DNA from: Eledone cirrhosa
Lineage: Eukaryota
Direction of reading: 5' to 3'
NCBI GenBank assembly: GCA_964016885.1
Contig: OZ024750.1
Coordinates: 34,658,001-34,722,000 of the forward strand
Length of the DNA: 64,000 nt
Positions 3,511 to 53,096 of the stretch are shown one piece after another. Under the pieces are notes generated by a model. It had not been told where the DNA came from. It ran no database searches and worked only from the letters and a program-made list of their open reading frames with translations. How positions within the stretch are numbered: position 1 is the first letter of the stretch; the number at the start of each line of letters is the position of its first letter. The position numbers and the translations under genes are program-made.

Positions 3511-3814
3511 ATAATATATAAACAAAAGATGGTTAAAAGAGTTCCATGTATTTTATTATGCGCATTTCATAAACAAATATCATCATGAGATGACATTTGC
3601 GTTTTCGTCAGATAAAATAGGGAGACATGATATGAAGGTTAAAAAACACTTGTGGATAGTGCAGTTTTAAATCAACATATTTTTAACCTTCATATCATGT
3701 CTCCCTATTTTATCTGACGAAAACGCAAATGTCATCTCATGATGATATTTGTTTATGAAATGCGCATAATAAAATACATGGAACTCTTTTAACCATCTTT
3801 TGTTTATATATTAT
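3511..3814. repeat. Fold-back inverted repeat, ~135-bp arms, ~34-bp spacer
   Basis: 3511-3645 is the reverse complement of 3680-3814. Confidence 0.92.
3706..3776 (+). ncRNA. Type I hammerhead motif with extended helix II (mirror copy 3549-3619 on minus)
   Basis: TATTTTAT CTGACGA aaacg CAAATGTCATC tcat GATGATATTTG tttat GAAA TGCGCA TA ATAAAATA. Confidence 0.75.
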
Positions 3815-4555
3815 ATATATATATATATGTTTATATATTATATATATATATATATATTTATATATATATATATATATATATATATATGGATTGAGAGGGA
3901 CGAGGCTGCATGGTTAGTAATAATTGTTTCTACGTTAGGCACAAGGCCAGCAATTACTCAGTGTATTACTGGTACTTTATTTTATCGACCCCGTAAGGAT
4001 GAAAGGCAAAGTTAACATCGGCGGGATTTGAACTCAGAATGGCAAGGGCCGTAACTCTATGCGCCAAAGCATGGCATCCGACACTCTACCAATACTGCCA
4101 ATCCACCGCATGGTTAGTAATAATGAGTGTTAAGGGAACACAAACAAAGATAGAAATTTTCCCTTCATCAGTTGTCTACTAAGTGTCACGGATGATTCAG
4201 CAAATTATATACAATACATTTTCTGTACCTTGTCTCCACCTCGATGAAGCAGGGGTCTTCCTAAGCCAGTGATCCCAAAGCATCATCATATATAGACCAG
4301 GTCCACCTTCACCTCGATGAAGCAGGGGGGTCTTCCTAAGCCAGTGATCCCAAAGCATCATCATATATAGACCAGGTCCACCAGTTCCCTTCAACACTAG
4401 TGGTCTCATGTAAAAATCTAAAGTTTAGCAAAAATTCAAAGTTAAGAGAAAGCCACAAGTGATTTTTATTTCTATGTTGAATTAATGATTTACAAACAAC
4501 CAGTAATGTAATCTCATGGGAGACATTTTATGTCTATTTTCCTTGCTTGAATAGA

Positions 4556-4790
4556 TTAACCATTTAGCATTTACATTACTCTATATATATATACTATTGT
4601 ATTTTCATGGTAAAGACTTTACCTCACATAATTATCTCACATAATATTGAATCTATGAGATTTTGATATTATTTATTTTGAGAACAATACCTTAACATCC
4701 GTATGAGTGGCTGGTTACAGCTGGTTTCAACAGAAAGAGGTGAGAGAATTCTTGCTGGATACAGCCCCAGTTTAAATGTTAAAAGGTTAA
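4556..4790. mobile_element. TTAA-flanked MITE (piggyBac-like termini)
   Basis: Termini ttaaccatttagcattta ... taaatgttaaaaggttaa. Other copies at 18330-18557, 39030-39797, 61616-61830 and 63562-63768 (opposite orientation); partial copies at ~8690-8742 and ~58910-58997. Confidence 0.75.
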
Positions 4791-5162
4791 TGATTTAAGA
4801 CTTACAACAACTAGTAATGTAATTTTATCTCAGGAGAGACATTATCATTTTATGTCTATTTTCCTTGCTTGAATAGATTAAACAAGATGTTATGTTTCCA
4901 GACAGGAGAGGGAAGGCAGTCAATATATACTGTAGTGGATTTAGTACTCTCTGGTTCTTTTAAATTCCTCTGGGATTGTCTTTGCTTTTTAATTCTCTAG
5001 TGTCAATAAAAAATAAAAGTATCAGCAATATGAATATGAATGTGAATGTGTGTGTGTATGTGAATGCGTGTGTATGTGAATGTATGTATGTGTATATATG
5101 CATGTGTGTATGTCTGTATTTATGTATGTATGTATGTGTGTATATACGTATGTATGCCTGTA

Positions 5163-48980: not shown

Positions 48981-50034
48981 ATGTAAAGTTATATTTAAAA
49001 TTGTTGGGTTACAACTAGTAAATATTTATAACTGATATAAAAGCACTCGACAAATATTTGGAGTATATTTACAATATTAAATAAATGGAAAACTATATTT
49101 ATAAAACCATATTTATTTCATTATATATATTTCGGGGATATCATATTAACAATATGCTATGCCTTCATCAGACAAAATGCAATATAAACAGTTTTATAGA
49201 TAAATATATTCGACATACCGTAATAAACATCAACTTCATTTGAAGAGGTTTACGCTAGCAGTGAAAATACAGAGAGAAAGAAAGAGAGAAAGAAAAGAGG
49301 GAAAAACGAAAGAAAGAAAGACAAAACGAAGAAAAGGAAGAAAAAGAAGAAAAAGAAAAAGAAGAAATGCATGGAACAAAATAGAGAGATGGAAAAATAG
49401 ATAAAGTGAAGAGCTTCATGTAAAGAGACAGAAAGATATATATATATATAGAGAGAGAGGAAATAGAGATAGATACATATATATATATAGAAAATTAGGT
49501 AGTGGGAGGTCATTTTGAGTAAGTGTATCAATGATACATTTATTTATTTATTTATTTATTTATTTATTTATTTAGCTCAAGTATTAATGTAAGGGAGATA
49601 TATAGAGAGATATAGAGAGATATAGAGAGAGAAAAAAATTTTAAAATATCCAGACATATTCGAGGCGTAGAAAACCCTATGTTTTAATGTATTAGTATTT
49701 ATAAAACTTACACTACACTGTAAATATCAGTATTCCTGAATGAAACAAGTATTCACAATGTGTGAAAATTCATTATCTTATGTTTAGTTTTAAAAATTCA
49801 TATGTCTATGTGACAGCTACAAATCTCAATGTGAATCCAACTGATTCACTCCGCAAACTCTAAGTTATCGGAAAACATTCTCAATGTGGTATAAAAATTT
49901 GAGCGTATTATTATTCTTGCGATTACTCTACAAGATTATCTATCAAGCAGAAATAGAGAGCAGATTTCAATATACTAATCGAAAATATATATTATATTAT
50001 AAACAAAGATAACAATAATAATAATAATAAGTAA
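48981..50034 (-). repeat. Penelope pseudo-LTR (5' copy, upstream of ORF)
   Basis: Direct repeat of 44953-46010; hammerhead motif at 49114-49179. Confidence 0.9.
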
Positions 50035-51468
50035 CTGACCTTGTGGGCTTATTTTTAATCAATTCGCTACATAGGAAAATACCTGGTACTACCGGAGGTT
50101 TATATAGGGATGACATGCTTTTACTTATTAATAATAATAACCCTGAACTAAATAGAAAATGTAAACAAATTACAAAATTTTTTAATTACTTTAACCTTAA
50201 AATAGAAATTGAGAACAACCATAGAATAGTCAATTTCCTAGATATAACATTAAATCTCAACACATGTCTCCACTATCCTTTTCACAAGTTGAATGAAAAC
50301 TTAAACTATGTCAACTTTAACTCTAACCACCCCAGATCTGTCAAAAACACTATAGTAAACTCAGTCCAAAAACGTATCTCTAGGATCTCGTCGAATAGAA
50401 AGATTTTTGACGAAAAGGCCCAATACTATAATGATGCACTAGCTAGGGCAGGGTATGCTGATAAGATTGTATACATAGATAATTGTTTCTACTTTTGGCA
50501 CAAGGCCAGCAAATATCCAGTACATTACTGGTACTTTATTTTATCGACCCCGTAAGGATGAAAGGCAAAGTTAACCTCGGCGGGATTTGAACTCAGACTG
50601 TAAAGGGACGTAACTATGCTAGAAAGCATGGCGTCCGACCCTCTACCGATACTGCCAATCCACCGCCCTCATTGTATACATAGATAATGATAGACAAACT
50701 AAACAAAGTAACAACTTTTTTAATTACGGCAACAACATTAACAACTATAATAGAAAGCATTACAATAATTCCAAAGGACAAAAAAGAAATAGAACTAGGA
50801 ACATAATTTGGTTTGCCCCCCCTTTCTCACTAAACATTAAAACCCACATCGCTAAATTATTTTTCAAAGCTCTTGATAATCGCTTCCCTAGAACACATAG
50901 GTATCACTCAATCTTCAATAGGCATACAATTAAATTAACCTACTCATCCACCAAAAATTTAGCACAAAATATTAATAGAATAAATAATAGGAACTTAAAA
51001 CCTACTGATAATAGCATAAATAATATACAAGTTAACAAATGTAACTGTAGAGATAGATCTAAATGTCCGTTAAATAACAACTGCTTAGTTAAAAATATAG
51101 TATACAATTGTAATGTTAATACTGACTCTAATTCTTTTAACTACGTCGGTTCCACATCGACGGAATTTAAACTTCGCTATAATAACCACAAGAATTCTTT
51201 CACAGATCCAAATAAAAAATCTTCAACGGCACTATCAGGGGTACTCTGGCAACTTAAGCTAGATAACGTTAGATATTCGACGGCTTGGAATATAGTCTCA
51301 AGAGGGATTCCTTTTAATTCATCCTCTGAGACATGTGACCTCTGCGCAGAGGAGATATTCTTTATACTAAAATCTAAAAACTCCCTTAACCTACGGACAA
51401 ATTTATTCAGTTGTTGCAAACATAGATTAAACTCAACGTTTAAATATAAATTTAAATTTAAAATGTAG
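50031..51468 (+). pseudogene. 5'-truncated inverted copy of the Penelope ORF (from VTDLVG to stop), interrupted by a SINE
   Basis: ORF 50043-50555 matches the RT C-terminal half up to KIVYIDN and then runs into SINE sequence. The Penelope sequence resumes at 50671 and ends aaaatgtag at ~51468. Confidence 0.92.
50484..50670 (-). mobile_element. SINE family B inserted in the inverted Penelope copy, 18-bp TSD
   Basis: attgtatacatagataat occurs at 50466-50483 and 50671-50688; the empty site is visible in the intact copy near 47500-47518. Confidence 0.92.
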
Positions 51469-53030
51469 TATATTTAGTTTGATTTATATTTATATGAGAA
51501 CTAGCCGATAAATCTTTTGATTCCTAAATCTTTGATTCCCTCGTTTTACTCTTTTTTTTTTTATTGTTTATTTTATTTTATTTATTTTTATTTTTATCTA
51601 AACATTCCTCATGAAAAATTAAGCTACCCTAAAAGCCGATGCTCCAAATTTTTTGAATTAACCTTACACTAGATAAACTTCTATATTAAACATAGGAACA
51701 TATGTAGACATTATTGGACATCATAATCTTTTTACGATATTCTTTGCTAGATGTGATTTGATAGATAATTTTTGGCTTTGTCTTGTAGTGAACTTGGCAA
51801 TATATTGTCAATTAACTTTGAAGGGTTGTTTTTTGTGGTTTATTTTTATTTTCATTTTTATTTTTATTTTTATTTTTATTTTTATTTTTATTTTTACTTT
51901 TATTCTTTTAGTATTGTAGTATTCTATAATATTTTTATTTTTATTTTATTTTTTTAATTATTTTTTTAATATTTTTTTTTTAATATTTTTATATATTTTT
52001 ATATATTTTTATATGTAAATTTTTATATGTAAATTTTTATATGTATATTTTTATATGTAAATTTTTATATGTAAATCTTTAATACGTAATATTTTTTAAT
52101 ACGTAGTATTTTTAATATGCAATATTTTTATTATGTAATATTCTTTCGTAATATTTTTTTAGTTTTCTATTCTATATTTTTATATATTTTTACTTATTAT
52201 TATTATTATTGTTATCTTTGTTTATAATATAATATATATTTTCGATTAGTATATTGAAATCTGCTCTCTATTTCTGCTTGATAGATAATCTTGTAGAGTA
52301 ATCGCAAGAATAATAATACGCTCAAATTTTTATACCACATTGAGAATGTTTTCCGATAACTTAGAGTTTGCGGAGTGAATCAGTTGGATTCACATTGAGA
52401 TTTGTAGCTGTCACATAGACATATGAATTTTTAAAACTAAACATAAGATAATGAATTTTCACACATTGTGAATACTTGTTTCATTCAGGAATACTGATAT
52501 TTACAGTGTAGTGTAAGTTTTATAAATACTAATACATTAAAACATAGGGTTTTCTACGCCTCGAATATGTCTGGATATTTTAAAATTTTTTTCTCTCTCT
52601 ATATCTCTCTATATCTCTCTATATATCTCCCTTACATTAATACTCGAGCTAAATAAATAAATAAATAAATAAATAAATAAATGTATCATTGATACACTTA
52701 CTCAAAATGACCTCCCACTACCTAATTTTCTATATATATATATGTATCTATCTCTATTTCCTCTCTCTCTCTATATATATATATCTTTCTGTCTCTTTAC
52801 ATGAAGCTCTTCACTTTATCTATTTTTCCATCTCTCTATTTTGTTCCATGCATTTCTTCTTTTTCTTCTTTTTCTTCCTTTTCTTCGTTTTGTCTTTCTT
52901 TCTTTCGTTTTTCCCTCTTTTCTTTCTCTCTTTCTTTCTGTATTTTCACTGCTAGCGTAAACCTCTTCAAATGAAGTTGATGTTTATTACGGTATGTCGA
53001 ATATATTTATCTATAAAACTGTTTATATTG

Positions 53031-53096
53031 TATTTTGTCTGATGAAGGCATAGCATATTGTTAATATGATATCCCCGAAATATATATAATGAAATA
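53031..53096 (+). ncRNA. Type I hammerhead ribozyme motif in Penelope pLTR (also 45086-45151 and 49114-49179 on minus)
   Basis: TATTTTGT CTGATGA aggcatagCATATTgttAATATGatatcccc GAAA TATATA TA ATGAAATA: helix I pairs, core intact, palindromic helix III. The base of helix II is imperfect. Confidence 0.7.

Follow-up and report, generated by a model that had tools for sequence, protein, structure and literature searches.

The window analysed here, a stretch of 64,000 nucleotides of the Eledone cirrhosa genome (contig OZ024750.1, positions 34,658,001 to 34,722,000), carries a set of motifs that an earlier note had described as a hammerhead ribozyme subfamily with a long, co-varying helix II and a palindromic helix III. 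The locus raises the question of whether these motifs are selected structures, which genetic element they belong to and how they could act. The motifs are real, selected and members of a known system, that of the hammerheads of Penelope-like elements (PLEs). On the best reading they are type I hammerheads located in the pseudo-long terminal repeats (pseudo-LTRs) of Hydra-type elements, where they probably cut tandem transcripts as dimers paired through helix III.

The five motifs listed in that note (at 3706, 21706, 29810, 35581 and 53031) were all found in place, each with an exact CUGANGA...GAAA core, an 8-bp helix I of the form TATTTTRT/ATRRARTA, an 8-nt helix III and a UA cleavage site, predicted to be AUA (U15.2-A16.2). 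The list was incomplete, as four further exact-core members (3611-, 33725-, 45143- and 49171-) and a decayed one (38749+) are also present; the five motifs correspond to five families, and the four additional copies are their inverted or tandem partners. A search with the pattern CTGANGA-N20-45-GAAATRYRYATA gave nine matches in the window, compared to a mean of 0.01 in 100 dinucleotide shuffles, none of which reached nine. The core CUGANGA...GAAA...UH, the three helices and the open helix I are those of a type I hammerhead, and the G10.1-C11.1 closing pair, which is conserved but not obligatory, is lacking as a rule. None of the 143 matches of an Rfam scan of the window (E up to 1) was to a hammerhead family. 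When the search was extended to the 3.0-Gb genome, a strict pattern yielded 69,397 matches (none in the control) and a pattern without the helix I constraint 83,500 (72 in the control), and no stretch of the metagenome contigs matched the strict pattern. In contigs from four runs of a single study, of a kind that does not bear on expression, no position was shared by many molecules as a start or an end.

Motifs 45143, 49171 and 53039 all lie within one composite insertion, formed by a full unit, an upstream partial copy and an inverted truncated copy. The intact open reading frame (ORF) of the unit encodes 737 residues with RWR at position 37, DKT at 118, CxCx5C at 596, YVG at 630, CxxC at 694 and CxH at 721, and its C-terminal GIY-YIG endonuclease lacks CCHH, as read by eye from the translation. 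Moreover, a (TA)4 run was found at 160 nt or less from the predicted site in 189 of 230 sampled copies. A RWK-like motif, DKT, CxCx5C, CxxC, CxH, a C-terminal GIY-YIG without CCHH, a (TA)n target and a length generally below 3 kb are described for Hydra-clade PLEs (PMC8557442), and on the motif features of the ORF the host elements are tentatively assigned to this clade. Their length departs from that tendency, with tandem motifs spaced by 4,028 nt in the window, 3,940 nt at locus L031 and 3,676 nt at locus L265. These 3.7-4.0-kb coding units and the solo fragments also differ from the short non-coding tandem repeats with one hammerhead per unit that define non-LTR retrozymes. The Penelope context proposed for the motifs is thus borne out by the pseudo-LTR, the (TA)n target and the ORF motifs. 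Searches of Pfam returned no family for the 737-aa ORF, and GIY-YIG for two of 34 aligned proteins; a PDB search of the ORF returned nothing.

All 61 scored genomic matches of the ORF were 96-100% identical to it and 55 of them had no internal stop, therefore the family of the window element is, by these sequences, young. Other hammerhead families adjoin ORF pieces that are mostly 38-52% identical to that of the window (60-88% in close families), such as the one at L031, which is 47% identical over 704 residues and lies with two motifs 3,940 nt apart. For families with a divergent helix I, a single weak ORF match was found (L262). The nearest named protein relatives are from Argonauta hians (36-39%).

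Helix II was read inward from both ends of the core, without gaps. Its plan is fixed: after three purine-pyrimidine pairs comes a C that faces C, U or A, and beyond this a distal helix that measures from 4 to about 12 bp. Position 4 was paired in none of 24 family representatives. It was other than C in 2,897 of the 69,397 copies, with the look of scattered mutants among the 100 matches listed, and faced a purine in 2,990, mostly in one C-A family among those 100 matches, in which the distal helix has only 4 bp. Families with a quite different helix I of 4-5 bp likewise retain the C mismatch and the AUA site, along with a helix III that is self-complementary (ATGATCAT in one of them). A base other than U after GAAA, together with the basal helix II plan, was found in 942 matches, some of them counted repeatedly.

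The base of helix II, which had been seen as an imperfect segment of 3-5 nt, is therefore indeed discontinuous, but follows this fixed plan with a covarying 3-bp helix. The arms CATATT/AATATG reported for motif 53031 are present, but their pairing is longer, spanning 10 positions of which one is a G-A mismatch, and A-C occupies the closing position. Helix II of this family, the youngest, is also the weakest, at about -3 kcal/mol with its A-C closing and internal G-A. An alternative drawing, which corresponds to the published Penelope pattern, places an extra A after A9 and leaves a G-C base of 2 bp; the extra nucleotide may have arisen again in this family by a register shift.

The extended helix II had been proposed as an unrecognised variant, in the belief that Penelope hammerheads usually have a very short one. 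This premise did not hold: the published ones are longer than usual, with a helix II consensus of 6 bp and up to 7-8 bp, palindromic helices III and many covarying families in PMC4209133, and stems II of 3-7 bp with self-complementary helices III of 8-10 nt for Hydra elements in File S2 of PMC8557442 (Craig et al. 2021); furthermore, length is not conserved here, as the family with a 4-bp distal helix reveals. What appears to be an undescribed lineage variant, judging from sequence, is the combination of the plan of 3 bp, unpaired C and extension with AUA and, mostly, no G-C closure. Of these traits, the conserved unpaired C within helix II looks new. No earlier description of the combination of 3 bp, unpaired C and AUA was found in the literature, of which figures and some supplements were outside view, so that a drawn example may be missed.

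Covariation of helix II was assayed in three sets of copies. In a hand-picked set of 34 copies aligned with MAFFT, eight of nine helix II pairs changed on both sides and 94.4% of the positions were paired; none of 500 shuffles reached either this fraction or the covariation score, and 107 of the 500 reached the count of further pair types. The second set comprised 198 copies from 186 loci plus the window, of which 179 had an intact upstream flank and 178 were kept after dropping one duplication. A tree was built from the flanks only and eight positions were scored, positions 1 and 4 being left out because the loci had been fetched by searches on them. Shared changes in true partners totalled 15, a value reached by 150 of 40,320 permutations of the partner columns. 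In the third set, the 24 family representatives, positions 3, 5, 6, 7 and 8 were paired in 22-24 cases, with 0-3 of 10,000 shuffles as high, and position 2 in 21, with 101 of 10,000 as high, these figures being counts and not probabilities; position 3, paired in all 24, appeared as A-U, U-A and G-C. The families over which helix II covaries have a protein identity of about 40-50%. The distal arms thus vary in sequence and stay paired beyond controls, as had been claimed, and the covariation of helices I, II and III upholds the proposal that the structure is under selection.

It could be argued that the pairing is unselected, deriving from few ancestors, from AT-rich self-complementarity and from hairpins made by template switching of the reverse transcriptase (RT) of the element. 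The window has 34% G+C with many TA runs, inverted junctions are frequent in these elements and independent double changes are few. This explanation is nevertheless extremely improbable, as at least three pair types occur at the same positions in families about 40-50% identical in protein, a mismatch is held at one position while both neighbours covary, slid controls of the 34-copy alignment are far lower (35-55% paired) and G-U is favoured over A-C in pairing cells (55 vs 22). This tolerance of G-U rather than A-C points to pairing at the RNA level, presumably on the sense strand.

Helix III was most frequently ATATGTAT (25,847 of 69,397 copies, 37%), which self-pairs only through two G-U pairs, followed by ATATATAT (20,212); the other 23,338 copies had other forms, chiefly ATGCGCAT among the matches listed. 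Among the 230 sampled copies, helix III was a strict palindrome in 144 and self-complementary with G-U allowed in 216, as in the dimer-type hammerheads of PLEs. The statement that helix III is self-complementary in all motifs was therefore right for most copies if G-U is allowed; motif 35581, with ATATGTAT, complies only in this way, and in the quoted ACCAcTGGT the centre is unpaired. Out of the seven helix III sequences quoted with that statement, two belong to the subfamily and two to other exact-core motifs (7996 and 57546), and three do not come from exact cores (6874-, 53292 and ACAATTGT).

Helix III positions 3 and 4 (AT/GC and TA/TG/CG/AT, respectively) were complementary in 24 of 24 representatives. 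A hairpin loop needs 3 nt, and the two central position pairs cannot form within one 8-nt strand. Therefore, their covariation is sequence evidence for pairing between two copies, and the dimer logic attributed to a palindromic helix III is supported. Within a monomer the 8-nt helix III would provide only 2 bp, compared to 8 bp between two copies. In an energy model run on 13 copies, the double fold was in every case more stable than two forced monomers, by 8-17 kcal/mol.

These data also bear on a scheme in which each copy is active alone, its helix II C mismatch docking on helix I in place of the loop-loop contact and stabilising a 2-bp helix III. In canonical hammerheads loop 2 starts at 4 bp (PMC4209133), which is the level of the invariant C; in sCYDV-RPV, AUA occurs together with a long helix II that contains internal loops (PMC1636495, Table 1); and helix I often extends well past 8 bp. 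However, the C is kept whether helix I has 8 bp, as in the abundant group, or 4-5 bp of another sequence, as in the divergent group; a 2-bp A-U helix III costs 2-3.5 kcal/mol; and covariation within what would be loop 3 requires two copies. Activity of single copies is thus very unlikely.

According to the dimer reading, in a transcript spanning two pseudo-LTRs (here motifs 49171 and 45143) the two copies would exchange helices I and III, and cleavage after A17 would free a unit-length RNA. The distal helix would support the 3-bp base, which is weak and in most copies has no G-C closing pair of the usual kind, and the invariant C would serve as a contact, with RNA or with a protein of the element, or as a bend. 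Cleavage by dimers has reportedly been described by Lunse et al. The AUA site, the weak closing pair and the lack of a canonical loop 2 suggest that cleavage is probably slow. The likely function would be a slow, dimer-dependent and perhaps protein-assisted cleavage of tandem transcripts; low activity and dimers are known for Penelope hammerheads (PMC4209133), as is protein assistance (PMC11167929). The unit-length RNA might then be circularised, as proposed in PMC4209133. A more specific proposal, which we put forward tentatively and regard as doubtful, is that the position 4 C, which stays unpaired in families that differ in helix I, in helix III and in half of their protein, docks on the partner ribozyme or on the element RT as a new functional contact and thereby enables cleavage only in the transposition complex. 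If so, these motifs would define a hammerhead subtype that is new in having neither the canonical loop contact nor the G-C closing pair, and one genome would offer more than 80,000 natural variants from which to read its rules.

Several results weigh against cleavage by dimers. In the same 13 copies the active fold was never the minimum-energy fold, even as a dimer (gap of 1.3-12.8 kcal/mol), part of the energy gain of the dimer is the penalty of the forced monomer hairpin, and z-scores of the extended single-copy fold were modest (-2.3 to +0.4). Regarding covariation, one false column pair scored 5 in the flank-tree test, above the best true pair (4), therefore single pairs are not established by it; position 1 was paired in 20 of 24 representatives, no better than shuffles (2,691 of 10,000 as high), and G10.1-C11.1 is present in only 5,107 of 69,397 copies (7%). 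Shuffle counts cannot be taken as probabilities, since the representatives were picked by hand, are related and were obtained with patterns in which the core and the helix III ends are prescribed. Helix II is weakest in the youngest family, of which dozens of intact ORFs are present. AUA was the slowest of four sites tested post-transcriptionally (PMC1636495), and hammerhead mutants of the anole element were unaffected in insertion in vitro, with no reads ending at the site (PMC11167929). Finally, 189 of the 230 copies continue past the site to a (TA)n end, therefore the template that was copied had either not been cut at the site or been joined again there.

This last result keeps alive an alternative in which the fold is a platform that binds or positions a protein of the element near two RT starts, with cutting being rare or protein-needing and the C mismatch being a mark for protein recognition. 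The element ends fall at two fixed distances past the predicted site, 40-59 nt in 102 of the 189 copies and 125-154 nt in 59, in line with the pair of RT starts and the tail of PMC11167929, and the weakness of helix II in the youngest family fits a platform too. In addition, cleavage is protein-requiring and dispensable for insertion in vitro in PMC11167929, and Naiads spread without canonical hammerheads (PMC8557442). Protein binding alone, however, does not predict that the centre of helix III covaries as a dimer would need, and the catalytic core is intact in every sampled family, though by construction of the search. We therefore consider the platform unlikely, and retain cleavage of tandem transcripts by helix III-paired dimers as the preferred reading. 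Nearly all genomic copies are probably inert, being solo or inverted 3' fragments without a partner in cis, and selection would have acted on the transposing lineages.

Around the motifs, further elements recur across families. A conserved YATGTC motif precedes each motif by 20-45 nt (e.g. window 52991-52999), an ACTCC...GAGT hairpin lies 50-75 nt downstream, at the start of an optional tail of about 90 nt at the element 3' ends (e.g. window 44949 and 53146), and helix I is often prolonged into a long rod with bulges that runs towards the end of the element. The upstream motif and the hairpin could be promoter, protein-binding or RT-start signals. A role of GTATGTC as a 5' splice donor, with the ribozyme in an intron, was discarded, as several families have ATATGTC, TTATGTC or TCATGTC.

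When compared to known systems, the hammerheads of Hydra-clade PLEs in File S2 of PMC8557442, including Hydra-1_Obim of Octopus bimaculoides, are also type I and near the element 3' end, and their elements share with that of the window the protein motifs and the target described above. However, all Hydra motifs in that file have a helix III of the form AC...GT, in contrast to AT...AT (U15.2-A16.2, AUA) in the window, and none of them has an unpaired C at helix II position 4; the units here are also longer (3.7-4.0 kb vs <3 kb), and Hydra-1_Obim, which differs in hammerhead sequence, is a family distinct from that of the window element. The minimal metazoan PLE hammerheads (Cervera and de la Pena 2014, PMC4209133) resemble those described here in their pseudo-LTRs, thousands of solo copies, long helix II, palindromic helix III, dimer model and many covarying families per genome. 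In contrast, their consensus has an extra nucleotide after A9 and G10.1-C11.1, the former being absent in most families here and the latter present in 7% of copies, and their helix III is near zero, compared to 8 nt here. Natural exceptions to G10.1-C11.1 closing are described in PMC3088659.

Beyond PLEs, sCYDV-RPV (+) and ELVd (+) (PMC1636495) have U15.2-A16.2 and an AUA site as here, and helix II of sCYDV-RPV is long and broken by internal loops; unlike the elements described here, they are plant RNA replicons of unrelated origin with a stable 6-bp helix III and loop contacts. The axolotl HHR_Amex2 non-LTR retrozymes (PMC7229834), with about 60,000 copies and a mismatch at the base of helix II, are similar in these two aspects and differ in being short tandem non-coding repeats with U-U at the base and canonical loop contacts. 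The PAc hammerhead of the anole Poseidon element (PMC11167929) lies, as here, upstream of two RT starts that define a tail, but the tail has 30-40 bp there and in published PLEs, compared to about 90 nt here, and the Poseidon ORF overlaps the ribozyme, whereas here it starts 188 nt after the site. In the main text of PMC13282606 hammerheads are unmentioned; the comparison also included PMC6765202, PMC6155905, PMC2837043 and bioRxiv 10.64898/2026.07.22.740005.

This young lineage would help to discriminate between dimer, protein-assisted and monomer models of the role of hammerheads in PLEs. Its natural variants share a single invariant nucleotide outside the core, and they cover four different helix III sequences, all self-complementary, and distal helices II from 4 to about 12 bp. 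It also reveals a set of more than 80,000 motifs that is missed by the Rfam models. Knowledge of hammerhead chemistry and Penelope biology is unchanged unless the C contact proves functional.

Table 1. Hammerhead motifs of the subfamily and parts of the host element in the window.
Feature	Position	Strand	Remarks
Type I hammerhead motif	3706..3776	+	longest helix II (36 nt); helix III ATGCGCAT; predicted site after 3768
Inverted partner of 3706 motif	3549..3619	-	~90-nt tail on this end
(TA)n target	3805..3887		after 3' end of 3706 copy
Hammerhead motif, solo 3' fragment	21706..21768	+	AAA-C-GTACTG/CAGTAC-C-TTT
Hammerhead motif, solo 3' fragment	29810..29871	+	basal pairs are three G-U
Inverted partner of 35581 motif	33654..33733	-	14-nt duplication within helix II
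Hammerhead motif	35581..35646	+	helix III ATATGTAT (G-U self-complementary)
Decayed member, same lineage (38749+)	38741..38792	+	short helix II; helix III ATCCGTAT
Downstream hammerhead motif of full element (45143)	45086..45151	-	145 nt inside element 3' end
Upstream hammerhead motif (49171)	49114..49179	-	predicted site 188 nt before ATG; only in-cis partner of 45143 motif
Hammerhead motif of inverted copy	53031..53096	+	A-C at helix II closing position
Full unit (4,028 nt), putative Hydra-clade PLE	44949..48976	-	44949-46010 is the downstream pseudo-LTR
Upstream pseudo-LTR (partial tandem copy)	48977..50034	-	99.3% identical to 44949-46010
Inverted 5'-truncated element copy	50671..53146	+	ends in (TA)n without tail
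(TA)n target	44884..44954		at 3' end of full-length element
Intact 737-aa ORF	46721..48934	-	RWR, DKT, YRDD, CxCx5C linker, C-terminal GIY-YIG, CxxC, CxH

Other hammerhead-like motifs were found in the window. A separate hammerhead at 7992-8070 (+), the 7996 motif, has a 50-nt helix II (6 bp, a pyrimidine-rich internal loop and about 12 bp) and helix III ACTGATCAGT. It is part of a 485-nt non-coding repeat (window 7598-8158; loci L196, L201 and L208; 553 pattern matches) that forms head-to-tail arrays of up to at least seven units and fits the definition of a non-LTR retrozyme; none has been reported in cephalopods in the literature searched. The motif at 6858-6907 (-), 6874-, has helix III ACTTAAGT and, in all copies found (334 matches), the 8-nt core CUGAAUGA with an extra A after A6, an insertion (A6a) known as a low-activity variant (PMC3088659). 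The motif at 57537-57601 (+), 57546, lies inside a palindrome (57407-57631), has a perfect helix II of at least 8 bp and helix III ACCACTGGT, and belongs to a family of Hydra-1_Obim-like type with relatives at L059, L104 and L179. At 53255-53310 (+) there is a decayed-core copy (53292) of an abundant hammerhead-like family with helix III ACGCGCGT and a GUC site (10 hits in about 210 loci). Two more motifs contain a core, one at 14660-14735 (-), with CTGAGGA and a long looped helix II, and one at 2410-2450 (-), with CTGATGA, a short helix II and helix III ACGTT.

The sequence ACAATTGT (56569+/56442-) was rejected as a hammerhead, as no CUGANGA with a helix I partner was found in the window or in the three other exact genomic matches. 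A version with a very long helix II was likewise rejected: CUGAUGA lies 190-224 nt upstream in two of these three copies, with no helix I partner. ACAATTGT, with five exact motif matches genome-wide, is contained in an inverted repeat at 56244-56767 with 255-nt arms and PLE-like ends beside TA runs.

Among the other repeats, a short interspersed element-like sequence of ~190 nt is present in more than 12 copies (2720-2899, 3915-4109, 13507-13851, 30310-30498, 41373-41749, 50479-50667, 53357-53765 and others), one of them inserted into the inverted PLE copy, and a second, transfer RNA-like repeat occurs at 8252, 15000, 29271 and 36085. An isolated full-length match to 5S ribosomal RNA was detected at 32018-32136 (+; 111.9 bits). 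There are also two 3' fragments like those of long interspersed elements, one at 27454-28041 (-), without a Pfam match, which we take to be RTE-like, and another at 42690-43604 (+), which matches zf-RVT (E 8.5e-6).

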